The notes beneath the pieces were generated by a model. That model worked only from the letters and a program-made list of their open reading frames with translations. It was not told the DNA's origin and ran no database searches. A DNA stretch of 64,000 bases from assembly GCA_000004985.1 (NCBI GenBank), contig GG738852.1. One strand, written 5' to 3'. The position numbers and the translations under genes are program-made. Shown piece after piece: positions 10,956 through 44,371 of this stretch. Positions within the stretch are counted from its first letter, which is position 1. Each line of letters starts with the position of its first letter. This stretch comes from Naegleria gruberi (lineage: Eukaryota).

Positions 10956-11105
10956 ATGCCAAAACACCAAAACATCTCCTACTTTTATGATGGAGATGTT
11001 GGTAATTATTACTATGGCCAAGGCCATCCAATGAAGCCACATCGTATCAAGATGACCCACAATTTGTTATTAAATTATGGACTTTATAAACATTTGGAAG
11101 TATAT
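10956..11105 (+). CDS. class I histone deacetylase (HDAC1/Rpd3-like), exon 1
   Basis: [50 protein letters not shown] is near-identical to the HDAC1 N-terminus. Donor gtaggt at 11106. Confidence 0.85.
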
Positions 11106-11154
11106 GTAGGTTTTATTATGATTGAAAATAGATTAAATTTTGTATGATGATCAG

Positions 11155-12270
11155 AGACCTCATCCAGCTTCTGAAGTTGAAATGTGTAAATTCCATGCGG
11201 ATGAATATGTTGAATTCTTGAAAAGAGTTACACCTGATAATATGCATGATTTCCAAAAACAATTACAAGCTTTTAATGTTGGTGAAGATTGTCCAGTATT
11301 TGATGGTCTTTTTGAATTTTGCAAACTTTCTGCAGGTGGTAGTATTGGAGCAGCAGTAAAATTAAACCATGAACAATCAGATATTGCCATCAACTGGGCT
11401 GGTGGTTTGCACCACGCTAAGAAGAATGAAGCCAGTGGCTTTTGTTACATTAATGATATTGTATTGGCTATTTTGGAATTACTTAAATATCATGCACGTG
11501 TTCTTTATATTGATATTGACATTCACCATGGTGATGGTGTTGAGGAAGCTTTTTATACCACAGATCGTGTAATGACAGTTTCTTTCCACAAATTTGGAGA
11601 ACAATATTTCCCAGGAACAGGTGATATCAAGGACATTGGTGCTGGTGCTGGAAAGTATTATGCACTCAACTTCCCACTTAAGGATGGTATTGATGATGAG
11701 AGCTATCTTTCAATTTTCAAACCTGTTATTGAAAAGGTTATGCAAGTTTTTAGACCAGGTGCTGTTGTTCTTCAATGTGGTGCTGATTCTTTAACTGGTG
11801 ATAGATTGGGTTGTTTTAACTTGACAACCAAAGGACATGCTGCTTGTGTAGACTTTGTCAAAACATTTGGCTTACCTCTTCTTGTTTTAGGTGGTGGTGG
11901 TTATACTGTTCGTAACGTTGCTAGATGTTGGACATATGAAACCTCAGTTCTTCTAGGTATTGACATTGAAAGTGAAATGCCATATAATGACTACTTTGAA
12001 TATTTTGGCCCAGATTATAATTTACATCTTCAACCTTCAAACATGGAAAATATGAATTCTCTAGAGTATTTAGAAAAGTATAAGAATATTATTTTGGATA
12101 ATTTGAATCATATCAAAGGAGCACCTTCGGTGCAGATGCAAGAAGTTCCACCTGACACTTATTATGTCAGTGAAGATGAGGATGATGTTGATCCTGATGA
12201 TCGTTTGTCACAAAAGGTTCTTGATAGACATAGAGCTCGTTCTAATGATTTTTATGATGATGACTTGTAA
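11155..12270 (+). CDS. class I histone deacetylase, exon 2
   Basis: Acceptor tgatcag at 11148-11154. [23 protein letters not shown]. Catalytic HHGDG and [16 protein letters not shown] motifs. Acidic tail. Intron is 49 nt. Confidence 0.85.
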
Positions 12271-12327
12271 TCTAATTTAATAACTCTTGTAAATTTAAAT
12301 ATAATTCTTTATTCACACAAATAAAAA

Positions 12328-12963
12328 ATGACCTTTTCCAATAACCTAATCATTCACGTTCATTATGATCACCAACAACAATACCAGAACAATAATCATT
12401 CTTTTCAAGAAGAAGAAATTAAACAATCGGAATCTATTCCATATCATGCAATTTTAACTTTTAATGGAAAACAATATAAATGTAGTGTTGGAAGAAATGG
12501 AATCAATCAAAAGGTTGGTGAGGGCGATGGAATTACACCCATTGGAGAATATTCATTGAGAATGGCCTTTTACAGATCAGATAGGGTTGATCCATCAATT
12601 ATTTCAAAAATTAAAGGAATTCCTCTTATTGAATTGAAAGAAAATTATGGTTGGTGTGATGATATGTTAGATTCACTGCATTACAATAGATTAATACAGC
12701 TTCCTGTATTGGAAGGATTATCGAGTGAAAAATTGTGGAGACAAGATCATTTGTATGACCTTTTTGCAGTAATAGGTTATAATGATAATCCAATTCAATT
12801 AGGAAAGGGAAGTGCAATCTTTTTCCACATTGCATCTGAAAATTATGGACCAACTTCAGGATGTGTTGCCATGCAGAGGGATGATTTAATTGAAGTATTT
12901 TCTAAATTGACTGCCTTTACCATTTTGAAAATTTCACAATCCTCTTATCCTTATCTGAAATAA
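12328..12963 (+). CDS. L,D-transpeptidase (YkuD/ErfK-family) domain protein, intronless, bacterial-type
   Basis: ATG at 12328 in ataaaaaATGa context. ITPIGEYSL and FFHIASENYGPTSGCVAMQRDDLIEVF match the YkuD His ... Ser-x-Gly-Cys-(V/I)-(R/A)-M catalytic signature. Confidence 0.6.
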   Translation: MTFSNNLIIHVHYDHQQQYQNNNHSFQEEEIKQSESIPYHAILTFNGKQYKCSVGRNGINQKVGEGDGITPIGEYSLRMAFYRSDRVDPSIISKIKGIPLIELKENYGWCDDMLDSLHYNRLIQLPVLEGLSSEKLWRQDHLYDLFAVIGYNDNPIQLGKGSAIFFHIASENYGPTSGCVAMQRDDLIEVFSKLTAFTILKISQSSYPYLK

Positions 12964-13008
12964 ATTTCAACTTGTTTAAATAAAATTTAGTTTTTAATAA
13001 ATTACATT

Positions 13009-13916
13009 TTAATCTTGATATTGCTTTTGAACAACTTGGGAATCACCATGTTTCAAAAGTTCAACATCACCTTCCACCATTCCTCTAACTAATTCATCAA
13101 AGCTGACATTTCTCTTCCATCCTAATTCAGTTTCAGCCTTGGTTGGGTCACCAATCAAGAGTTCAACTTCAGTTGGTCTAAAGTAACGTGGGTCAACCTT
13201 AACTCTGACAACACCATCAACAACACCATGTTCATCAACAGTACCTGGAGTACCCTTCCATTCAACCTTCTTACCGAGAACAGCAAATGATTTTTCAACA
13301 AATTCTCTAACTTTGTGTTTTTCACCAGTGGCAACACAATAATCGGCTGGCTTTTCTTGTTGGAGCATCAACCACATGGCTTCAACATAGTCCTTAGCAT
13401 GTCCCCAATCTCTTTCAGCATCCAAATTACCCAAATACAAGCAATCTTGCAATCCGAGATGAATACGAGCAACAGCCATAGTAATCTTTCTTGTAACAAA
13501 GGTTGGACCACGACGAATACTTTCATGATTGAAAAGAATTCCGTTCAAAGCAAACATATTGTAAGCTTCTCTATAGTTGATAACAATCCAATAACTGTAC
13601 AACTTGGCGCAAGCATATGGAGAACGTGGATAGAATGGAGTGGTTTCTTTTTGTGGAATTTCTTGAACTAAACCATACAATTCACTAGTACTAGCTTGAT
13701 AGAATCTAGTCTTCTTTTCCAATCCACAAGCACGAATGGCTTCCAAAATACGCAAAGTACCAATACCATCAACATTGGCAGTGTATTCAGGCATTTCAAA
13801 ACTGACTTTAACATGGGATTGAGCACCCAAGTTGTAGATTTCATCTGGTCTAATCTTGGAAATGATGGAAATCAAGTTTCCGGTATCAGTCAAGTCACCA
13901 TATAAAAGTTTGAATT
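13009..13916 (-). CDS. GDP-mannose 4,6-dehydratase, exon 2
   Basis: [54 protein letters not shown] and ASTSELYG...[12 protein letters not shown] are near-identical to human GMD. Acceptor aatcag ends at 13917. Confidence 0.85.
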
Positions 13917-14028
13917 CTGATTAATTATTATTATTAATCAAATAAATTAAATCATCAAAAAAGATCAAAATAATTATCATCACAAAGGATTAAAATTGTT
14001 AGCGTGAATCACGACAAAAATTACTTAC

Positions 14029-14311
14029 TAGCCTTGGTGATGTGAATATCCTTATACAAATGTTCAACTCTACCAGTGTTGAATGATGAAGAACGTCTAA
14101 TCATACCATAGACAGTATATCCCTTTTCTAACAAGAGTTCAGCCAAGTAGGATCCATCTTGACCAGTTACACCAGTAATCAAGGCAACTTTAGAGTCGTG
14201 TTCTTGGATTGGAATTTGGGTAATGTCGACTGGTGTTGGTTCGCTCATTTTTTTATTGTCAGTGCTTCTGTTGTTTTCCAACAGTGTCGAAAAAACATCA
14301 ACGGTAACCAT
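14029..14311 (-). CDS. GDP-mannose 4,6-dehydratase, exon 1
   Basis: Rossmann motif [24 protein letters not shown]. Donor gtaagt at 14028-14023, phase 1. Intron 13917-14028 is 112 nt. ATG at 14311. An alternative A-rich-context ATG at 14248 gives MSEPTPV. Confidence 0.8.
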
Positions 14312-14767: not shown

Positions 14768-15904
14768 TTATTTCTGATATAATGATCTGGAATTTGGAAT
14801 GTAGAAATAATCGAAAAAGTAAACCTTATGTGTTAAATCCAAAGCTCCATTCAAAAATGTAATTATATGATCATCAGAGGTACTTGTCTTTGAATCGAAT
14901 GGCTGTTCAATATTGAACAATTTTTGCTGATATTCTTCTTCAGCCTTCAATTCCTTAATGCTCTTTCTAACAAAATTCTGGTCGTCGTGCACATGGCCAA
15001 ATACAGAAATATTTGGCTTAACTCTATGAATTAATTGATTTTTCAACCAATAATCTCCCCAATGCTCATAATAGTCATGAATATTTCCACAAACTTTACA
15101 AACTTGTTTTGGATTTTCATTATTCTTTACCCAAGCTAAATCCAGAATGTTGAAAGGTGGAGTATGACTCAGGACAATATCAGAATCACTGTCAATCTCC
15201 TTCCAATAAGAATAAGAATTTGATGAGTGAAAGGCCATTCCCTGAGAGGTAATTGGTGATCCATAAATCTTAATACTCGAATCTAAAATTATTGAATTAT
15301 TCTGTAAATAATAATCACAGTTTGGCAGTAATGGATTTTGTCTAGTATTGAAAATTTTCTCAGGGTCCAAATTCTTATTATATTTTGCATCCATTCCATA
15401 ATCATGATTACCTGAAATACAGATTATTGTTTTACAATTTCCACTTATTTTTAGTCTTCCTAGAAAATCATTGAATTGAGAAATTTCATCCAAACTCCCC
15501 CTATTTGAAAAGTCTCCACAACATAAAATTACATCTCCATTGGGTATTTTGGGGAAGAGAGCTTCTCCTTTTGAATGAATATCAGATAGTACAACAAATC
15601 TTTTAACATTATATTCTTGGTTGGTGTCATTAATAATTGGCATGTTCATTTCTTTCAATCCCTGCAACAATTGATCCCTAATCTTGATGATAACATCCTT
15701 ATCTTTATTAGTATCCTTTCCTAACAAATATTGATGAATGTACCAATTAATAAACTTTAAGTTCACCTGTATAGGTACAAAGTTTGGTTTATGATAGGCA
15801 ATTTCCTTCTCCGAGGAAAAATAGCTTCCCTGATGTAATCTCTCTTTAATGAAGAGAGAAATTAATTGTTCACAGTGTTGTTTTAGTGGTAGATTTTGAG
15901 ACAT
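14768..15904 (-). CDS. metallophosphoesterase (calcineurin-like phosphoesterase) family protein
   Basis: ATG at 15904-15902. Motifs CCGDFSNRG (GDxxxRG), ISGNHDYG (GNHD) and VFGHVHDDQ (GHxH). Confidence 0.7.
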   Translation of the reverse strand: MSQNLPLKQHCEQLISLFIKERLHQGSYFSSEKEIAYHKPNFVPIQVNLKFINWYIHQYLLGKDTNKDKDVIIKIRDQLLQGLKEMNMPIINDTNQEYNVKRFVVLSDIHSKGEALFPKIPNGDVILCCGDFSNRGSLDEISQFNDFLGRLKISGNCKTIICISGNHDYGMDAKYNKNLDPEKIFNTRQNPLLPNCDYYLQNNSIILDSSIKIYGSPITSQGMAFHSSNSYSYWKEIDSDSDIVLSHTPPFNILDLAWVKNNENPKQVCKVCGNIHDYYEHWGDYWLKNQLIHRVKPNISVFGHVHDDQNFVRKSIKELKAEEEYQQKLFNIEQPFDSKTSTSDDHIITFLNGALDLTHKVYFFDYFYIPNSRSLYQK

Positions 15905-16089: not shown

Positions 16090-19000
16090 TTACAATCTAT
16101 TTGAAGCACCACCACAAGTATTTCTCATAATAATTGATTCAGATGAAACACCTGGACCGAAAGCAACAGCAATAGACCATTCATTATTGAGATATTGTTG
16201 AGTTCTTCTATATAATTCCATTACAAACATAATGGTAACAGAGGACATGTTACCATATCTTGTCATGATATCCCATGAGGCCTTCAAATCTTCACGATTC
16301 ATTGTCAATGCCTTTTCAACTGCATACAAGATTGCCTTACCACCTGGGTGAGCCAAAACATTACAATTTTCCTTCAAAACAATTTCATCCTTGTGTTGAG
16401 ACTTCTTCAACAAGGTATTAATGTAATCCTTGAGTGAGTTGGTAATGATTTGTGGAACTTCAGGTGACAAGCTCAAGTGGAAACCATCATGGAAAACTTT
16501 CCATGTCATGCATTCATCAGTATTTGGAGTAGTGTAAGAGTGAGTATCGAATAATTCATAAACAGGTTTTTCACCCTTTTGAGCTTGTGGTTGAGAACCA
16601 ACAACCATTGAGGCAACACCATCACCAAAGATGGCACTAACAATCTTTTCATCAGTATTATTGGAAATTCTAAAGTGAACAGATGACAATTCAATACAAA
16701 TGACCAAAACTCTATTCTTTGGATTGAGAGAAGTCAAAGCACGAGCAGCCTTCAAAGTAATCAAACCAGCAGCACATCCTGACATGTTGATTGGGAAATA
16801 TTCAACAGCGTGAGACAATCCAAGTCTATCCATAAACTTCAAGTGAATATTTGGAACAGCAATACCAGTTGAGGTACAAGTAATGAGGTGAGTAATTTCC
16901 TTAACATCACCCTTCCATTCATCAATGGCCTTAGAAGCAGCTTGATAAGCCAATTCTGGGGCAACCTTCAAGAAGATATCATTTCTACTTTCAATAGTCT
17001 TCAAATCATTGGTAGAATTCTTGGTAAAATCGAAAGCAACACATCTTTCCTTAATTTCACAGCCCTTGAACAAGTTGTGAATTCTTTCCTTGATCTTTTC
17101 GTCAGCAGTTCCGTAATCCTTCATGATACCTTCGAAGAGTTCTTCTTGAGTCTTTCTTGGAGGATTGGCAACACCAATACCAAGAATGTAAGCATTGCTT
17201 GGGTTCTTCATGTTGGCCTTTCTGGCATGAGCAGCAAATTCCTTAACTGGAACACTTTCAGGAACAACAGTCTTAGTGAGTGGAGTGTTATCAGTGGTGG
17301 TAGTAGTGACTGTTGTGGTAGCAGTAACAACTGGAGTTTGTTGAGCGACAACAGGTTTTGGTTGTTCAGCAACAACTGGTTTTGGTTGAACTGGAGTAGC
17401 AGCAGAGGCAACAGCAGTTGGAGTAGCAGTCTTGGTTTGCTTGGCTGGTTCAGATTTTTTAGAAGTCTTAGATTCCTTCTTTTCAGATGAAGCAGCTCCC
17501 ATCTTGTCCATAATCTTAGCAGCAAGTGACTTGACAGTTGTGTCCTTCTTCAAGATATCAATGGTTGTGATTGAACCACGAGGATACATCTTATCCAACC
17601 AGTTCTTCAATTGAGTAGCCATCAAAGAGTCCATACCGTATTGTCTGAGTGGTTCAGCAATTTCAATAGCTTCTAATGGAATACCCAAAATCTTGGCCAA
17701 TTGAGTGGCAATCATTTGATCGACAGTTAATTGAGAAGTAGAAGCATCCATACCAGCATCTTGAGCAGTTTCAATAAACAATTCACCGAACATCTTCTTC
17801 AAATGCTTAAAGTTATCAGAGTGATCCTTCCAATCAATACAACTGATAATCTTTTGTGGTTGAGCATCAGTTTGTTGAGAAATCAATGCCTTTTCAAGAC
17901 ATTTAACCAAGAGTGGAATTGGCATAGAAATGAAACCTCTTGATCTCAAAATAACCTTAGTTGAGTATTGTCTTGAAACAAAACCATCATCAATGGCACC
18001 AAAGTTAACACTCAATGCTGGTAAATTCTTTGACTTTCTGTAGTGGGCAAGAGCATCCAAAATACAATTGGCAGCAGCATAATTGGATTGTTCCATATTA
18101 CCATTGATAGCAACAAAGCTGGAGAACATGACAAAATATTTGATAGAGTTTTCATTCAAAGTAGCATGGTGAACATTCCAAGCAGAAACAGCCTTAGCTT
18201 GAATGACATTGTTGAACTTGGTTTCAGTCATGTTATTGATGGAACAATCTTCATATACAGTAGCAAGATGGAAAACTGATTCCAATGGTGGCATATTCAA
18301 AGTGGTACGAACTTGAGTAATGATATTTTCAACATTTTGTCTGTTAGAAACATCACATGGCAAAACTTGAATATTCAAAGAAGAGTCAGTCTTGATCAAT
18401 TCTTCAATTCTATCCTTTGATTGACCTTCAGTCAATTTACCACTTCTTGAGAGAATGACTAAATTCTTAACTTGCTTTTGTTCAATGAGCCATAAAACGA
18501 GGGACAAACCAACACCACGAGTACCACCAACAACCAAATGAGTCTTGTCAGAAGAGAAGGTCAATCCACGCATTTCTTCCTTCAATTTTTCATATCTTGG
18601 AATGGAGGTTTCCAAATCTTCATTGGTCATGTTGAGGACAATCTTACCAATGTGCTTGGCATGAGCCATAAAATTGAAAGCATCATGAAGCTTTTCCTTA
18701 TCATAGACAACATATGGCAATGGGAAGAGTCTCTTTTGCTCCATCAAATCCATAACTTCTCTGAACATTTGTTGAACAAGTTCTGGCTTTTCGTCCATCA
18801 TTCTGTCCAAATCAACTGAGGCATAGGTCAAGTTACGATGCATTTGTTGCAAATTGACACAAGTACCATCATAGATATCTCTAATACCAATTTCGACAAA
18901 TCTACCATATGAACCCAATGATTCAAAGTTGGCAGACAACATATCAGTACCAGCCAAAGAGTTCAAAACAACATCACAACCCTTTCCATTAGTGAATTTC

Positions 19001-22000
19001 ATAACATCATCACGGAAACTAGTTGAACGAGAATCAGTAGTGTAATGAACCTTATAGGTTTCATCTTGTTCCAAGAAGGTTCTCTTCTCACCACGACCAG
19101 CTGTACCAATGGTGACGGCACCAAAGTGATTAGCAATTTGAACAGCAGACAACCCAACAGCACCAGCTGCAGAGTGAATCATACAGGTTTCTCCCTTTCT
19201 CAATCTGGCAACATGAACCAAACCATACCATGAAGTCAAGAAGGCAGATGGAATAGTTGAAGCTTGTTCGTAGGACATCCAATCTGGTTTCTTAATAGCG
19301 AGACTTGACTTGACATTGACATAGGATGAGAAACATTTTCTAGCAATACAGACAACCTTATCACCAATCTTAAAGTCAGTAACAGATGGGCCAACTTCAA
19401 CAATGACACCAGAACATTCCAAACCGAATGGTGGATTCCATTTACCACCTCTTCTAAAAGCCTTATCTGGAATTCTACCCAATGAGAACATTAAATCCTT
19501 GAAACTCAAAGCAGAAGCCTTAACTGAAATTCTAACTTCATCAGCTTCAAGTGGAACAAATTCTTCAACTTCATGGAATGACAATTCACTAACTGAACCA
19601 ATTGAGTTGGACTTTAAGGTAACTGGAGCGTTTGGCTTTTGAATCAATGTTGATTTGACAACCTTCAAATACTTCAAGTCACCACAAGCAGCTAAAGCCA
19701 ATTCGTTATATTCCAAATTGTCACAATTTACAAAGAGGTTAGAAATAGTTTGGGAAGCAATGTCCATGTTGATACCTTCAGAGAAATCGAACAAGAAACT
19801 CTTAATGTTTGGATGTTCACTTCTGAAAGTTCTACCAATACCAACAAATTGAGCAGATGATGGAACAGAGTAGGTGAGTTGAGCACCCTTGGTGACAATC
19901 CACAATTTAGTTTCACATGATTCATGGTCAAGTTCAATCTTGATCATTTCCTTAATAATTTGCATCAATCTCCAAGAGTTGGATTCTTGAGTGACTTGAT
20001 TATCTTCAGCAACGTTAGCAACAAACACAATACCAGAAATTTCTTGATTTTGAGCGAGCATGTTAACAGCTTGTTCAGCAGAAACAATTGTAGTAGAAAC
20101 AGCAGACAAGGAAGAGACAACAGCCTTGGTCATGTCAGATTCAGCAACATCAGAGACAACAATCCATTGTTGAGCAACAGATTGTTCTTCTTGTTCGACT
20201 GGAGCAGTCATTTCAGTCAATTCTTCCTTATTGGCGGAAGTCCAAGCAACATCATACATACAATCATTAGAAGTAATGGTAAAGACAGTTGGACAAGATG
20301 CTTGAGTAATAGCTCTACACTTGACGCACAAGAATGAAGCAATTGGAACAATAGAACCTTGCTTGTGGCCATAAATAAAGACGTCACCTTCAAGTTCATA
20401 TTGAGATTGATTAGTCATCTTGCAGTAAACTGAAATACTATCCATGTCTGGGACCAATTGGTTCAAACAAACTTCAGTATTCAAAACACAAGTATCAATT
20501 GAAGATGGAATGTATACGATAGCATCTTCTTCAGCAATAGCGATCAATGATTGCAAACAAGAATCCAAAATACCAACTTCCAAAACAGACTTGTGTCTCT
20601 TAGTATCCAAGAGACTCTTTGGTCCTTCATCGAATTTCTTCTTCAATGACAATTCACTGACACCTTCATTCTTACCAACATAAATCTTATCCAATTGTTG
20701 GAAAACTGGACCATATTCAAGACCCATCTTTCTCAATTTAGAGTAGAGTTCATTCTTTGACATTGAGACTTCCATGCAACGTGGCTTGACTTCATCCAAG
20801 TTTGGATGAGTCTTTAAATTGGTTGGTGGCAACATTCTCAAGAAACACTTATAGTGATCGAGCCAATCTTCCAAACCTCTCTTACTCTTAATTTCAATCA
20901 TTTGACTATTTTGAGTTCCGTGAACTAATGGAGTAACATCAGTTTCAACAATGAAACCACCTGGTGCAGTTTGAGATAAGGATAGAGCACCCTTAAAGTC
21001 ACATCCTTGCAAAATGAATTGCTTTGGAAGTTCCTTTTGTTCAGAGTCCTTTTCATTAGCTCTGATTTGAGCAACAGCAGCGTGGAGAGACATTAAAACA
21101 TAGGAAACACCTGGATAAATGATATCACCTTGAATAACGTGATCCTTCAAGTTAGGGAAGTGATCCAATGAAATTCTATTTTGGAATGTAACACTACCAG
21201 ATCTCAAACTCTTGTGTCCAACCAAATTAGATGGATAACCTCTTCTCCATTCAGCAGCTTGTTCTTCAGTTTGATTCCAAATCATTTGACTTCTATCCCA
21301 TGGGTAGAATGGAACTTTAACCTTATTGAAAAGGTGATTCCAGTTGACATTTTCTCTGAAGGTAACATTGTGAATGAATCCATTGACGAATAAATCTCTA
21401 GCACATTGGAGCATAGTTTCTTGTTCATCAACGAAACGCTTCAAAGTAAAGTAACACTTGGTATCTTCAATACCCAATTCAGAAGCACATTCCTTAATGG
21501 AAGCAGCAAGAACTGGATGAGGACTCAACTCAACAAATCCTCTGTAACCTTGTTTTAACAAATCAGTAATTGGATCAGCAAAGAGAACAGCTTGTCTAAC
21601 ATTACCCCACAAATAGTGTTCATCCATATTTTCAACAGTGGTATCATACAATTTACCAGTAACAGTAGAGTAGAGTGGAATGAGGGTTGGTTTACCACGG
21701 CTGACTGGTGAGAAATTCTTCAAAGCATTCAACATTTCTTCCTTAATTGGTTCTTGATATTGAGAGTGGAATGCACAATAACCTCTCAACTTTCTACAAA
21801 AGACTCCCTTACCCTTGGAAATATCTTGTTCCAACTTGTTAATGAGTTGAGGAGAACCAGCCAAAGTACATGATCCAGGACCATTGATAGCAGCAACAAC
21901 AACAGCAGAACGATCTTCACCACTCAAATATTCATCCAAGTAGAGTTCACATTGAGCTGGAGAGACACCAACAGCCAACATGTTACCAGATCCACAGGTC

Positions 22001-24066
22001 TTTTCTTGCAAGGTACTTCTCCAATACAAGATGGTAATGGCTTCTTCCAAAGTATAGACACCAGCAGCATAGGCACTACCAACTTCACCAGCAGAGTGAC
22101 CAACAACGACAGATGGATGAATATTCCAAGCTTTCATCATGGCATATAAACCAGCTTGGAGGAAGAAGATAGCTGGTTGAGCATAGAGTGGGTGATCCAT
22201 ATCATCATCAGTTAAACATTGTTCCTTAATCCACTTTCCAACAAGAGACCATCCAGACAATTGACTGAACAATCTATCACATTCATCCAAACAATTTCTG
22301 AAAATTTCATACTTGTTATAGAGTTGGATACCCATGGATTTAGTTTGTGGACCTTGACCTGGGAAGACAAAGACGAATCCCTTATCACTTCTATTTGAAT
22401 TATGTACAATACCCTTAGATCTAAGAGTATCAGCAGATTCGGATGCAATTGTCTTCAATTGTTTGACACAATCTTCAACAGAGCTAGTAATGATAGTACT
22501 TCTCAATTTGTGATGAGATCTAAATTGATTTTGAACAGTAAAGACATCAATCATAGAATCCTTATCATGGATACATTCCTTGCTTGATAAATCTTGAGCA
22601 AGACTTTGGAGGGATGGAATGGATTGTGCAGACAACATCATCATGACCTTTTCGCTTTCCTTTTCTGGCAATTTTGGTGCTTCCAACTTTGGTTGCTCGA
22701 ATTCTTCCAAAATGACGTGAGCATTGACACCACCAATACCCATAGAGTTAATACCAAAGACCAATGGCTTGGAACCTCTCTTCTTAACCAATGGAATTGG
22801 TTCAGTAACAACTCTCATATTATACTTATCCAATGGAATCTTTGGATTCAACTTTTTAATATTGGCAACTGGACATAAGAGTCTCTTTTCCATCATGAGA
22901 ACAGCCTTAATTAAACCAGCGACACCAGATGCACATTCCAAGTGACCAATATTACCCTTAACAGAACCAACATAGATTGGTTTGGATCTATTTGGACCGG
23001 AGAGAACTTCACCAATGGCAACAGTTTCAACAACGTCACCCTTAGCAGTACCAGTACCGTGACATTCAACATAATCAACTTCGAATGGTGACAAGATACT
23101 AGCAGTTTCTTCTGGTAATCTATCATAAGCTTTCTTAATATTCAAAGCTTGAGTAATTGAGGAAGGAGTGATCAAAGAATCTTCAGCAGCACCATCAACA
23201 TTGACACTTGAACCACGAATGACACCATAAATACGGTCACCACTTTCAAGAGCCTTCTTCAATGGCTTTAAAACAACTAAACCAGCACCTTCACCTCTAA
23301 CGAAACCGTTGGCAGATTCATCGAATGGTTTACACTTACCATCCTTTGATAAAACACCAACTTTACTAAACTCGCAATAAGGAGATGGAGAAAGGATTAA
23401 AGAGACACCACCTGCAATAGCCATTTCACACTCATTATTCTTCAAGCTCATACATGCTTGATGAACTGCAACGAGAGAAGATGAACAAGCAGTATCAATA
23501 CTCATAGATGGACCTCTAAAATCATAGAGGAATGAAATACGGTTAGAGGCAATACTCAAAGTATTACCATTGTGAGTGTATGAAGTAATTCTTTCAAAAT
23601 TATTGTTATCCAATTGAACAGTGTAAAAGTCCAATTGACCAATACCGATAAAGACACCAGTTTCATCGAACAAATGACCATTTGTGCTATCTTTCTTTGG
23701 TCTAATACCAGCATCTTCTAAACATTCCCATGTTAATTCTAAAAGTAAACGTTGTTGTGGATCCATAACTTCCACTTCTTTTTGACCAACACCCAAAACA
23801 CTACAATCGAAAGCCTTGATTTGATCCTCGGGTATGTAAGCACCACGAGATGAAGACATTAATCCAGGAACATTGGAAGCATCAGTAGATTCCCAATTTT
23901 GAGATTTCCATCTCCATTCAGGTGTATCGGTAATGTGTTCTTGGCATTCAGTGAGGAGCTTCCAAAATTCGTGCTTATCTTTAGCTCCAGGTAAACGACA
24001 GGAAAGACCAACAATGGCATAACTGTCAGCAGTGATATGATTGTGATTATTTGTAGTTGTAGACAT
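16090..24066 (-). CDS. Steely-type hybrid polyketide synthase: type I KS-AT-DH-ER-KR-ACP fused to a C-terminal type III (chalcone synthase-like) PKS domain
   Basis: Single 8-kb ORF. First ATG at 24066-24064 (MSTTTNNHNH). The ORF-track start at 24102 is TTG. KS: DTACSSSLVA, ECHGTGT, GNIGHLECASG. AT: GHSAGEVGSAYAAGV, YCAFHSQ. DH: HVIQGDIIYPGVSY. ER: HSAAGAVGLSAVQ. KR: VVGGTRGVGLS, NYAAAN. ACP: GMDSLMATQL. P/T-rich linker. Type III domain: NMSGCAAGLITLKAARAL, LAHPGGKAILYAVE, YGNMSSVTIMF (Cys-His-Asn triad). The line labels place the stop at 16089-16091, a 1-nt discrepancy with the track. Confidence 0.9.
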   Translation of the reverse strand: MSTTTNNHNHITADSYAIVGLSCRLPGAKDKHEFWKLLTECQEHITDTPEWRWKSQNWESTDASNVPGLMSSSRGAYIPEDQIKAFDCSVLGVGQKEVEVMDPQQRLLLELTWECLEDAGIRPKKDSTNGHLFDETGVFIGIGQLDFYTVQLDNNNFERITSYTHNGNTLSIASNRISFLYDFRGPSMSIDTACSSSLVAVHQACMSLKNNECEMAIAGGVSLILSPSPYCEFSKVGVLSKDGKCKPFDESANGFVRGEGAGLVVLKPLKKALESGDRIYGVIRGSSVNVDGAAEDSLITPSSITQALNIKKAYDRLPEETASILSPFEVDYVECHGTGTAKGDVVETVAIGEVLSGPNRSKPIYVGSVKGNIGHLECASGVAGLIKAVLMMEKRLLCPVANIKKLNPKIPLDKYNMRVVTEPIPLVKKRGSKPLVFGINSMGIGGVNAHVILEEFEQPKLEAPKLPEKESEKVMMMLSAQSIPSLQSLAQDLSSKECIHDKDSMIDVFTVQNQFRSHHKLRSTIITSSVEDCVKQLKTIASESADTLRSKGIVHNSNRSDKGFVFVFPGQGPQTKSMGIQLYNKYEIFRNCLDECDRLFSQLSGWSLVGKWIKEQCLTDDDMDHPLYAQPAIFFLQAGLYAMMKAWNIHPSVVVGHSAGEVGSAYAAGVYTLEEAITILYWRSTLQEKTCGSGNMLAVGVSPAQCELYLDEYLSGEDRSAVVVAAINGPGSCTLAGSPQLINKLEQDISKGKGVFCRKLRGYCAFHSQYQEPIKEEMLNALKNFSPVSRGKPTLIPLYSTVTGKLYDTTVENMDEHYLWGNVRQAVLFADPITDLLKQGYRGFVELSPHPVLAASIKECASELGIEDTKCYFTLKRFVDEQETMLQCARDLFVNGFIHNVTFRENVNWNHLFNKVKVPFYPWDRSQMIWNQTEEQAAEWRRGYPSNLVGHKSLRSGSVTFQNRISLDHFPNLKDHVIQGDIIYPGVSYVLMSLHAAVAQIRANEKDSEQKELPKQFILQGCDFKGALSLSQTAPGGFIVETDVTPLVHGTQNSQMIEIKSKRGLEDWLDHYKCFLRMLPPTNLKTHPNLDEVKPRCMEVSMSKNELYSKLRKMGLEYGPVFQQLDKIYVGKNEGVSELSLKKKFDEGPKSLLDTKRHKSVLEVGILDSCLQSLIAIAEEDAIVYIPSSIDTCVLNTEVCLNQLVPDMDSISVYCKMTNQSQYELEGDVFIYGHKQGSIVPIASFLCVKCRAITQASCPTVFTITSNDCMYDVAWTSANKEELTEMTAPVEQEEQSVAQQWIVVSDVAESDMTKAVVSSLSAVSTTIVSAEQAVNMLAQNQEISGIVFVANVAEDNQVTQESNSWRLMQIIKEMIKIELDHESCETKLWIVTKGAQLTYSVPSSAQFVGIGRTFRSEHPNIKSFLFDFSEGINMDIASQTISNLFVNCDNLEYNELALAACGDLKYLKVVKSTLIQKPNAPVTLKSNSIGSVSELSFHEVEEFVPLEADEVRISVKASALSFKDLMFSLGRIPDKAFRRGGKWNPPFGLECSGVIVEVGPSVTDFKIGDKVVCIARKCFSSYVNVKSSLAIKKPDWMSYEQASTIPSAFLTSWYGLVHVARLRKGETCMIHSAAGAVGLSAVQIANHFGAVTIGTAGRGEKRTFLEQDETYKVHYTTDSRSTSFRDDVMKFTNGKGCDVVLNSLAGTDMLSANFESLGSYGRFVEIGIRDIYDGTCVNLQQMHRNLTYASVDLDRMMDEKPELVQQMFREVMDLMEQKRLFPLPYVVYDKEKLHDAFNFMAHAKHIGKIVLNMTNEDLETSIPRYEKLKEEMRGLTFSSDKTHLVVGGTRGVGLSLVLWLIEQKQVKNLVILSRSGKLTEGQSKDRIEELIKTDSSLNIQVLPCDVSNRQNVENIITQVRTTLNMPPLESVFHLATVYEDCSINNMTETKFNNVIQAKAVSAWNVHHATLNENSIKYFVMFSSFVAINGNMEQSNYAAANCILDALAHYRKSKNLPALSVNFGAIDDGFVSRQYSTKVILRSRGFISMPIPLLVKCLEKALISQQTDAQPQKIISCIDWKDHSDNFKHLKKMFGELFIETAQDAGMDASTSQLTVDQMIATQLAKILGIPLEAIEIAEPLRQYGMDSLMATQLKNWLDKMYPRGSITTIDILKKDTTVKSLAAKIMDKMGAASSEKKESKTSKKSEPAKQTKTATPTAVASAATPVQPKPVVAEQPKPVVAQQTPVVTATTTVTTTTTDNTPLTKTVVPESVPVKEFAAHARKANMKNPSNAYILGIGVANPPRKTQEELFEGIMKDYGTADEKIKERIHNLFKGCEIKERCVAFDFTKNSTNDLKTIESRNDIFLKVAPELAYQAASKAIDEWKGDVKEITHLITCTSTGIAVPNIHLKFMDRLGLSHAVEYFPINMSGCAAGLITLKAARALTSLNPKNRVLVICIELSSVHFRISNNTDEKIVSAIFGDGVASMVVGSQPQAQKGEKPVYELFDTHSYTTPNTDECMTWKVFHDGFHLSLSPEVPQIITNSLKDYINTLLKKSQHKDEIVLKENCNVLAHPGGKAILYAVEKALTMNREDLKASWDIMTRYGNMSSVTIMFVMELYRRTQQYLNNEWSIAVAFGPGVSSESIIMRNTCGGASNRL

Positions 24067-25664
24067 TCTTTGATCTATATGGTTGTTATCGTGACTATAC
24101 AATTGATTAATTGATCAAAGTGTTTGTGTTGTTGTATATAGATTCTCTATATAATGTTTTGGGTTGATTTTGTGTCTTTTTTTCAGACTTGCAATTTGTC
24201 TAAGGTGGCCTTGCAGTTCTCTTAAAGGTTCAAATTTGAGTACTATGCTGAAGTGTGCTATTGTGACACAAAAATTGAAACTAGCTGTTGTTGTGGAGAG
24301 TCCTCTCTCTTCGAATCAACATTCAACATCTCTCTCCTTTCTTACATCACCAGCACACAGAAAGTAGAGTGCTCTCTCTTGAGGAATCAACAACATTGCT
24401 GTTGATGATATTCATGAAGAATCTGAAAAGATCTTTTGCCAACAACCATCCACTTGGTTAAAAGAAAGTTTGAGGAATCAAATGTTAACTTTTGAGTGAA
24501 AGAAGGCACTTCTTCTCGGCATTTTCCAGAAATCAACGGACACTTTGGAATAAATTCACCGTACATGTAGGCCATTTCTATCGAGTATTTGATAGTTCCA
24601 AATTGCTGGAATGTTTGAAATTCCAAATCAGCAATTGGGTTACGATCAAATTTCTAAATTTTTCAAGCTGTATTTTGCTTCTTAATACCTTACTGTAAGT
24701 TTGAATTGCATTTTCAATGTGTTTCTTAATGAAGTGTGCAGTGGGTCATTGCAATAAGGAGTAATCGATAGAGTTACTACTAGTCGATTGAAAAGATAAT
24801 TTAAGGAACTTAATATCCTTCCTCCCATTCATATTAACAGATAACAAGACAGATCATATATTGGCTCATATTGCATTAATACTAAACAGTAAGCGCTGAT
24901 GCTTCAAGTTGTTTTTACAGCCATTGGTACACTGCAAAGGAATATAGGGCAGAACTTTCATATTGATGGTTCTCTTGAAGCTTCATATGATTGAAAGGTT
25001 CTTCATCCAGCAACACCTCATCATCAGAAAGCATAATATTCATGATTATTAATCATTCAATGTCCTCTCAACGTCCACGTTTCTTTTATAGATTAAATTC
25101 CAATCCTAGAAGCCAATACAAATCATGCTTATTGTATAGAAATTTATTGTAATTTTCTATTGCGTTCCGATAATAATAAAAGATAATCACACTATTCAAC
25201 TTTAAATTTTCGAAAGCATAGAATACAGCCCACCATTTCAATGCATTCTTTATTCTGTGCCTGAACCTGTGTGACAACCCAATTTTGTACAGACACTTTG
25301 AATTTTCCTGTGAATTGGACATAAAACTTGATGTGCGATTGTATACTATTTGAGGATTGTTAGATATGGAATCAACAAAGATAAGTGGTAATTATCTGGC
25401 TGCAATTATGTTAGAAAAAATGTCTCAATCTCTTACACTTGTATTCTTGTGAAACCTTAATGAAATCAGAGCATGAATCAACAAATTTATTAAAATAATA
25501 ATAAAAAAATTGTCAAATAATACCTCTTAAATGTTGATCATATTTGAACCCATTTTACATTCTCTTTATATTCAAAACTTTTCATCCCTAAAGTAAAAGT
25601 GAAAATTAACTTTACACCTGCTATTCAAAAATTTGCTTGAAAGTAAAAAAAATTGAATTAAAAA

Positions 25665-43322: not shown

Positions 43323-44371
43323 TTAATGGATAGCAAGAGTACTTTCACAGACTCCACAAGCAACTTTTCTCTTCTTGTACCCAAAGTATGGTCTAGCAAC
43401 TGCTCCAAGATAACCACCAAACAAGGCCATAATAATCCAAGTGTAACCATGAATGGACATGCAACTAACGCCTGAAAAGTAAGCTCCAATGTTGCAACCA
43501 TAACCGAATTTAGCACCAATACCCATAGCAATACCTCCAATAATCTTTGCAATAGCAATTCCAAAGTTATCCTTAATCCAATCAACAAATCTTGAAATAT
43601 AATTAGAAATGGTGAAAAACACAGAAGCTCTATCTCCATTTTCGTCAGTTCTCTTTGGAGCAAAACTCTTCAAAGACATTCCATCTAGGAAACTTGGGAA
43701 TTTACCCTTCAATAAAGTGGCAATAATGGCACCATAAACAATACCAAAATCAAGAATAAAGTTTGGATTGAAAAGCATGTTAGCCTTTCTAAGATCAGTA
43801 CCCTTCCAAGCAGACCAGCCAGGAACATTTAAATTTGGAGCAATGGCATCCAAAATCTTACAACCAATAATTGCAAATGGACCAGTAAGTCCCATAGGAT
43901 GTTGAGTGATGAGAAGGAAGAAAAAGTTGAAAAAGGCCAAAGCAATACCAGTGCTCATAATATCCCAAGGTCCATAAATTAATTTAAAGATAATATTTGA
44001 AAAGAATTCCTTGATCTTTTGAGATGTAGAAAGTTGAACTTCTTCATTCTCTACTTGATTAATTAATCCTTCTCTAGAAGCTTCTTTTTGCTTTCTCTTA
44101 TTATAGAAATGAACTCCAATAGCAAAAGCAAGTAAAATAGTAATTTGTGTACACATGGCAAAAACTGCAATCAAATATTCCAACCAAGCATGTTTTTGTA
44201 AAAAGGCAATTCCATAACCCTTCTTTAAGAAAGCTCCTGGGAAGAGCAATGAGAGACCGACATGATTTGGGAATGAAATGTTCCAATCTCCTGCACTTTG
44301 CAAAGCAGTAGCAATAACACTTCCAGCAACAAAGAAAACCAACAAATATACACTCCATAAACTACCAGCAC
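43323..44371 (-). CDS. YeeE/YedE (Sulf_transp) family membrane protein, exon 3
   Basis: Acceptor aattatag ends at 44372. Second-half motif IGGIAMGIGAKFGYGCNIGAYFSGVS (GxGCxxG). Confidence 0.6.

Follow-up and report, generated by a model that had tools for sequence, protein, structure and literature searches.

The gene and its product

The window analyzed here is a stretch of 64,000 nucleotides from contig GG738852.1 of the Naegleria gruberi genome assembly GCA_000004985.1, in which an uninterrupted open reading frame (ORF) running from ATG to TAA (12328..12963, plus strand) encodes a protein of 211 amino acids with a YkuD domain. YkuD-fold enzymes have so far been treated as purely bacterial wall enzymes. 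An earlier note, made from the sequence of the window alone, had described the ORF as a bacterial-type L,D-transpeptidase gene situated among spliced eukaryotic genes as the result of an old horizontal transfer. Its identification of a YkuD signature is confirmed: the strings it quoted are present in the translation, the Pfam YkuD model (PF03734) matches residues 48-198 with E=4.9e-11 and 43.8 bits (gathering threshold 23.4), and the AlphaFold2 model built with 19 homologs is a YkuD beta-sandwich, with a mean predicted local distance difference test score (pLDDT) of 84.7 and block means of 83-97 over residues 41-200. PF03734 is present in all homologs that were found, and the Pfam search of the N. 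gruberi protein returned no domain besides YkuD, whether peptidoglycan-binding or accessory. Its hidden Markov model (HMM) score, its fold and its conserved catalytic dyad all place the protein in the YkuD fold family. The gene, the features of its product and the adjoining genes are set out in Table 1.

Table 1. Coordinates of the YkuD gene of N. gruberi, of features within it and of the adjoining genes and spacers in the window.
Feature	Position	Strand	Basis
Histone deacetylase gene, two exons, intron 11106-11154 (GT..AG, 49 bp)	10956..12270	+	Pfam Hist_deacetyl, E=2e-84
Spacer from histone deacetylase stop to YkuD start, 57 bp, AT-rich	12271..12327	+	Sequence
YkuD-fold protein, complete intronless coding sequence, 211 aa plus TAA	12328..12963	+	ORF list, sequence
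Q/N/E-rich linker between first strand and domain core, aa 12-38, poorly conserved	12361..12441	+	Alignment, model
YkuD catalytic domain, aa 48-198	12469..12921	+	Pfam PF03734 match
EGD motif (Glu65-Gly66-Asp67), near-invariant within the subfamily	12520..12528	+	138-sequence alignment
His167 codon, predicted catalytic, within GSAIFFH	12826..12828	+	Invariant in 138/138 relatives; placed where the YkuD motif has its catalytic His
Cys179 codon, predicted nucleophile, within TSGCVAM	12862..12864	+	Invariant in 138/138; aligns with GC of Pgp2 and Csd6
Spacer to the convergent GDP-mannose dehydratase gene, 45 bp	12964..13008	.	Sequence, ORF list
GDP-mannose 4,6-dehydratase gene, two exons, intron 13917-14028 (GT..AG, minus strand)	13009..14311	-	Pfam GDP_Man_Dehyd on both ORF pieces

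The predicted catalytic residues His167 and Cys179 are invariant in all 138 relatives aligned, and both are kept in every heterolobosean ortholog, a point on which the earlier note had let its reading depend. About 40 further positions are invariant across the same relatives, and the Naegleria protein retains all of them. Glu65 and Asp67 are each conserved in 138 of 138 sequences and Gly66 in 137 of 138. In a weak profile alignment (E=0.42), Glu65-Gly66 falls on the L-E-G-D stretch of Csd6 and, judging by this alignment and the sequence context, may be the counterpart of Glu-110/Gly-111 of Csd6, which bind the D-center of meso-diaminopimelate; the E110A variant of Csd6 is inactive (PMC4599014). 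The spacing of the catalytic pair is H167-I168-x10-C179, and H-(L/V/I)-x10-C is found throughout the subfamily, a shorter His-Cys loop than that of the canonical motif for the fold, H(S/G/D)X14-19C (PMC4599014). The closest solved structures are the L,D-carboxypeptidases Csd6 (4xzz) and Pgp2 (6xj7), and the top Foldseek matches are L,D-transpeptidases. A sequence search of the PDB with the single protein gave no match, and a search with the family profile gave weak matches to Pgp2 and Csd6 only.

The length of 211 residues is explained solely by the low-complexity linker at residues 12-38, in which block-mean pLDDT is 53-65; bacterial homologs lack this linker, and the closest ortholog, P0001 from a metagenomic contig, has a 16-residue gap at the same place. 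Heterolobosean orthologs are 180-205 residues long and bacterial relatives 163-170. The N-terminus (MTF..L.I.V) is kept in P0001, and the first beta-strand (residues 8-13) belongs to the fold; because this strand starts at residue 8, a cleavable targeting peptide could not be accommodated. Judged by a hydrophobicity heuristic, the N. gruberi protein has no signal peptide or hydrophobic N-terminus (maximum 12-residue Kyte-Doolittle mean 0.57, a value not exceeded in the linker, which contains no hydrophobic stretch), and the five heterolobosean orthologs have neither a signal peptide nor a transmembrane segment; the N-terminus of the Willaertia ortholog is acidic (MESDDD…). The location of the protein is predicted to be cytosolic.

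The gene is under purifying selection. Comparison with P0001 gave dN=0.27, dS=1.74 and a dN/dS ratio (nonsynonymous to synonymous substitution rates) of 0.15, or 0.13 for the domain alone, values that are approximate because dS is saturated. The host-like composition described by the earlier note was borne out: G+C content at third codon positions (GC3) is 0.22, compared with 0.22-0.31 in five neighboring genes and 0.73-0.82 in alphaproteobacterial homologs, and the codon adaptation of the gene to its neighbors falls inside the neighbors' own range. Contamination, chimerism and decay are very unlikely because of this combination of selective constraint, host-like GC3 and host-like codon adaptation. 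The exact 211-residue sequence is absent from a collection of 15 billion proteins, in which the best match is 75% identical, although the collection does hold the product of an adjacent N. gruberi gene (EFC48203.1); thus, the public N. gruberi gene set seems to lack an annotation for the YkuD gene. Its seeming omission from the reference protein set makes it worth adding.

Orthologs, bacterial relatives and genomic surroundings

Among 628 homolog matches, the only named eukaryotes with orthologs are Naegleria and Willaertia, all of them heteroloboseans. Identity to the N. gruberi protein is 75% for P0001, 53% for N. lovaniensis C9374_011686, 51% for Willaertia magna ABK040_007686 and 59%, over the modeled part, for N. 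fowleri FDP41_001814; the orthologs of the sister species already bear the automatic label 'L,D-TPase catalytic domain-containing protein'. The next relatives after the heterolobosean sequences are hundreds of bacterial proteins of approximately 163-170 residues. P0001 (190 residues) is encoded on a metagenomic contig, L001 (positions 1-875; ENA ERZ27254845 k141_1816163), that opens with the 3' end of a histone deacetylase gene followed by a 136-bp spacer; because the C-terminus encoded there is that of the same histone deacetylase and the YkuD gene follows it, the gene order is kept in a second Naegleria-like genome in which the junction was assembled independently. In N. lovaniensis and W. 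magna the surroundings are eukaryotic as well (Maf1, HECT ligase, V-ATPase subunit D, histone), and the contigs that carry the orthologs measure 234 kb and 790 kb. Neither ortholog adjoins histone deacetylase or GDP-mannose dehydratase, so that synteny supports only the close relative represented by L001. The N. lovaniensis (P0002) and N. fowleri (P0006) proteins have long low-complexity insertions rich in N, S and H in the same surface loop, equivalent to residues 86-97. In N. fowleri the gene model opens within the domain (MSEEVKGIGHK…), a sign that its start was called wrongly or a first exon overlooked.

A profile made from the bacterial alignment detected at least 593 relatives among the GTDB representative genomes, one for each prokaryotic species, and the best 80 of these loci are nearly all from Alphaproteobacteria (Rhizomicrobium/Micropepsales, Stellaceae, Caulobacteraceae, Hyphomonas, Defluviicoccus, Dongia, Rhodomicrobium). 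When 1.84 billion cluster representatives were searched exhaustively, 943 clusters (50% identity) matched at E<=1e-10. One of the most similar bacterial homologs, P0004 (L085 6001-6573; 54% identity), is on a contig of 42% GC and adjoins dapA-bamC-purC, a gene order typical of Gammaproteobacteria; thus, the subfamily is not strictly alphaproteobacterial. When 417 ORFs flanking 76 bacterial loci were clustered, a convergent YggS-family pyridoxal phosphate protein was found immediately downstream at 28 loci, a ThiE-like protein at 28 and an OmpR-type response regulator upstream at 28; an uncharacterized protein of approximately 258 residues lies directly upstream at 22, PBP1A is within three genes at 12, and LeuS also occurs. 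The N-termini of 237 family members comprise 131 without extension, 81 with a short non-hydrophobic extension and 25 that are hydrophobic. Signal-peptide-like N-termini characterize a group of metagenomic proteins within the subfamily with 86% bootstrap support (P0010, P0027, P0030, P0032, P0045, P0060 on L088 and L091, P0162, P0180, P0192, P0209), which is encoded on short AT-rich contigs, in one case next to a CLC channel gene. Some members have low-complexity runs of eukaryotic style, including poly-N and T-rich stretches in P0162, and the group may represent secreted versions in other protists.

Trees were constructed by neighbor-joining only, from 167 columns. Bootstrap support is 100% for N. 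gruberi with P0001, 100% for N. lovaniensis with N. fowleri, 58-59% for all Naegleria and 45-61% when Willaertia is added, and the gene tree agrees with the species tree. An insertion of one residue (…D-x-x-H-YNRL) is present in only 7 of 138 sequences, namely the five heterolobosean proteins, P0005 and the bacterial P0016. P0005 (L002 4572-5144; also L003 and L004) adjoins a eukaryotic WD40/DUF2415 protein of which the best named matches are plant proteins (approximately 41% identity), and probably comes from an unsequenced microbial eukaryote; if its origin is eukaryotic, the distribution of the gene in eukaryotes may exceed Naegleria and Willaertia. P0016 (L086 6001-6543) is the sole sequence with the insertion (xHYNQF) in a bacterial context, with a response regulator, a porin and YggS as neighbors, and may be related to the donor lineage or have gained the insertion convergently. 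Composition may pull AT-rich bacterial members toward the AT-rich eukaryotic sequences. The gene is of bacterial ancestry, and the simplest history is that it entered an ancestor of both Naegleria and Willaertia once and has been inherited vertically ever since.

The two genes that flank the YkuD gene have GT..AG introns that were read straight from the sequence, which upholds the description of an intronless gene between spliced histone deacetylase and GDP-mannose dehydratase genes. An intronless ORF further along (14768..15904, minus strand) is 100% identical over its full length to N. gruberi NAEGRDRAFT_63982 (EFC48203.1, 'predicted protein'), and the remaining proteins of the window are typically eukaryotic (Polo kinase, enolase, DEAD-box helicase, bZIP, RCC1/BTB, P450, Tam41, class I tRNA synthetase). 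With this identity, and with all named eukaryotic orthologs heterolobosean, the earlier assignment of the DNA to a dictyostelid was mistaken, and no dictyostelid homolog is among the 628 matches. That assignment probably came from the AT-rich DNA and a large hybrid polyketide synthase (PKS) nearby (16090-24102, minus strand), an ORF of 2670 residues in which the domains KS-AT-DH-ER-KR-ACP, in this order, precede a chalcone/stilbene-synthase (type III PKS) domain at the C-terminus. Its architecture is the same as that of Steely of Dictyostelium, which is called unique to Dictyostelium in PMC9489281; no mention of a Steely-type enzyme in Naegleria was found in a literature search. An ORF of 340 residues (43323-44345, minus strand) matches Pfam Sulf_transp (PF04143), the YeeE/YedE-type sulfur transport family. 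This family is mostly prokaryotic, and the ORF could be another bacterial-type gene within the window.

Proposed function and its alternatives

Naegleria eats bacteria and is not known to have peptidoglycan of its own, and for these reasons an action in the cytosol on tetrapeptides derived from prey is proposed. The explanation favored here, with somewhat better than even confidence, is that the locus is a functional nuclear gene of N. gruberi for a leaderless, single-domain YkuD-fold cysteine L,D-peptidase, which arrived by one bacterial transfer and acts as a cytosolic L,D-carboxypeptidase on peptidoglycan peptides of prey; as part of this explanation, the source would be the mostly leaderless subfamily of approximately 165 residues that is commonest in Alphaproteobacteria. 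Processing of prey peptidoglycan had been offered by the earlier note as one alternative, and it is the one preferred; the other, crosslinking in the spore coat, is inapplicable to a host that is not a dictyostelid. The predicted substrates are tetrapeptides released into the cytosol from digested bacteria. Cys179, activated by His167, would attack the L,D bond between meso-diaminopimelate at position 3 and D-Ala at position 4, D-Ala would depart as a thioester of Cys179 forms, and with no peptidoglycan acceptor the thioester would be resolved by water. The predicted chemistry is thus that of an L,D-carboxypeptidase, converting tetrapeptide to tripeptide, rather than that of a crosslinking transpeptidase, and its putative physiological role would be to open otherwise indigestible D-amino-acid peptides to catabolism. 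A copy that is conserved, under selection and predicted to be cytosolic, in a predator without a peptidoglycan wall, argues for action on soluble peptidoglycan peptides.

Several results weigh against parts of this explanation. Monophyly of the heterolobosean sequences receives no more than moderate bootstrap support (45-61%), the neighbor-joining trees single out no donor lineage, and there is no recycling operon around the bacterial homologs at the 76 loci that were compared. Orthology to ElsL, the leaderless L,D-carboxypeptidase of Acinetobacter baumannii that the enzyme would resemble most in its working, was rejected: the N. gruberi protein scores 16.7 bits and none of its relatives more than 22 bits with NCBIfam NF040925, a narrow 'exception' model with a cut-off of 270. 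The great distance from ElsL, the uncharacterized state of the bacterial subfamily, its conserved neighbors (YggS, ThiE-like protein, response regulator), which are not recycling genes, and the H-x11-C spacing in place of the H(S/G/D)X14-19C of studied enzymes would all be accommodated if the protein had a peptidase or exchange activity on another substrate, whether it acts on other D-amino-acid peptides, inactivates muropeptides of intracellular bacteria or has a role of the subfamily outside recycling; this alternative is plausible but unlikely. The label of transpeptidase given in the earlier note names the family rather than the likely activity. With a YkuD fold and an intact catalytic dyad, in a family of which many members are transpeptidases, the protein might be a true crosslinking enzyme, for example of the Naegleria cyst wall or of glycoproteins, but this is improbable in view of the five orthologs without signal peptide or transmembrane segment, the N-terminus that is part of the fold, the lack of a peptidoglycan-binding or accessory domain, the mostly leaderless bacterial relatives, the non-canonical motif spacing, the closest structures, which are the carboxypeptidases Csd6 and Pgp2, and a host that is not known to have peptidoglycan.

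The remaining alternatives concern the origin and the state of the gene. Absence from the public N. gruberi protein set might suggest a non-functional relic whose ORF has stayed open merely by chance since an old transfer; intact ORFs in five heterolobosean genomes or contigs, retention of all of the approximately 40 residues invariant in the subfamily and a dN/dS of 0.15, even with dS saturated, make such survival very hard to credit. An equally slight probability is given to endosymbiotic gene transfer from the alphaproteobacterial ancestor of mitochondria, which would agree with a bacterial family that is predominantly alphaproteobacterial but not with a gene found, among named eukaryotes, only in Naegleria and Willaertia, besides one or a few metagenomic eukaryotes, nor with an N-terminus that lacks a mitochondrial presequence, is acidic in Willaertia and is homologous to the bacterial N-terminus. 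Bacterial contamination or chimeric assembly is effectively refuted by the intron-containing eukaryotic genes 57 bp and 45 bp away, the host-like composition, the same junction with histone deacetylase assembled independently from a metagenome, and the orthologs inside large eukaryotic contigs of three other species. Because a YkuD gene of bacterial ancestry lies among spliced eukaryotic genes and has a host-like composition, the earlier conclusion of an old horizontal transfer stands, upheld by the bacterial affiliation of the family, the eukaryotic genes around the orthologs and the junction on L001.

If the favored function, cytosolic L,D-carboxypeptidase activity on prey peptides, is true, it would be the first function for a large uncharacterized, mainly alphaproteobacterial subfamily of leaderless YkuD proteins, and Naegleria would be an acceptor-free system for probing the role of that subfamily. 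A broader and distinctly more tentative proposal is that Naegleria and at least one other, unsequenced protist with the gene marked by the insertion rebuilt part of the cytoplasmic peptidoglycan recycling of bacteria as a digestive pathway, one that would break down the D-amino-acid stem peptides of prey walls in the cytosol and in which the partners of the YkuD L,D-carboxypeptidase would be AnmK and perhaps further acquired enzymes, the subfamily being a second class of recycling L,D-carboxypeptidases independent of ElsL. The ortholog of N. fowleri, the brain-eating amoeba, has the fold of a carbapenem-type target, which is a mere curiosity unless the gene matters for growth.

Comparison with characterized enzymes

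ElsL of A. baumannii is the one characterized precedent for a leaderless YkuD protein of this size; it is a cytoplasmic L,D-carboxypeptidase, not a transpeptidase, and removes D-Ala from tetrapeptide muropeptides during wall recycling (PMC8649774). The two proteins are alike in consisting of a single YkuD domain of approximately 165 residues without signal peptide or peptidoglycan-binding domain and in the position of the catalytic Cys, about residue 140 when the protein has its bacterial length; the HMM matches to the ElsL model, weak as they are, run collinear with it. A leaderless single YkuD domain, no peptidoglycan-binding domain and a length of 105-200 residues, which define the ElsL class in PMC8649774, are all found in the subfamily, with its bacterial relatives of 163-170 residues. 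Reports of ElsL orthologs, in contrast, come mainly from Gamma- and Betaproteobacteria and Verrucomicrobia (PMC8649774) whereas the subfamily of the N. gruberi protein is mainly alphaproteobacterial, and the N. gruberi protein belongs to a eukaryotic host, which has no wall to recycle. Csd6 of Helicobacter pylori and Pgp2 of Campylobacter jejuni are cell-shape enzymes that trim the peptidoglycan wall (PMC4599014); each has three domains (N-terminal dimerization, L,D-carboxypeptidase, NTF2-like) whereas the Naegleria protein is a bare domain, and the His-Cys spacing of Csd6 is H-x15-C compared to the shorter H-x11-C. A single narrow substrate path is among the traits of the Csd6/Pgp2 family. 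The canonical L,D-transpeptidases (Bacillus subtilis YkuD, Enterococcus faecium Ldtfm, Mycobacterium tuberculosis LdtMt1-5) are secreted or anchored, those that were matched are longer multi-domain chains with 11-21% identity to the leaderless, single-domain Naegleria protein, and they have the H(S/G/D)X14-19C motif and two substrate paths (PMC4599014) in place of an 11-residue His-Cys loop. The Naegleria protein does not belong to the canonical secreted L,D-transpeptidases, since it lacks an export signal and an accessory domain and its motif is wrongly spaced.

Naegleria is well known to have gained genes by horizontal transfer, and the figure cited in the Naegleria pangenome paper is that 2.7% of N. 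gruberi genes have bacterial homologs; the YkuD gene, one of a leaderless subfamily, would be a prey-derived, wall-catabolic gene in a bacterivore. A literature search found no report of a YkuD-family gene in Naegleria, Dictyostelium or any other eukaryote, and a 2025 review of L,D-transpeptidases makes no mention of eukaryotes. The nearest parallels are AnmK, a cytosolic peptidoglycan-recycling enzyme present in Naegleria (PMC9928731), and the NamZ, AnmK, MurQ, LysA and pbp4b (D,D-carboxypeptidase) genes that anaerobic bacterivorous ciliates acquired laterally (PMC13198582); neither of these papers nor the other literature found mentions an L,D-carboxypeptidase or YkuD gene. The proposed role of the N. 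gruberi protein fits both cases, in that a bacterial wall-recycling enzyme is kept by a eukaryote that eats bacteria, presumably for use on the walls of prey. The enzymes of Naegleria and the ciliates differ in dealing mainly with the amino-sugar part of peptidoglycan, whereas the YkuD enzyme would act on the stem peptide and would thus bring a stem-peptide step to the few peptidoglycan-catabolic genes that protists feeding on bacteria have gained from their prey.

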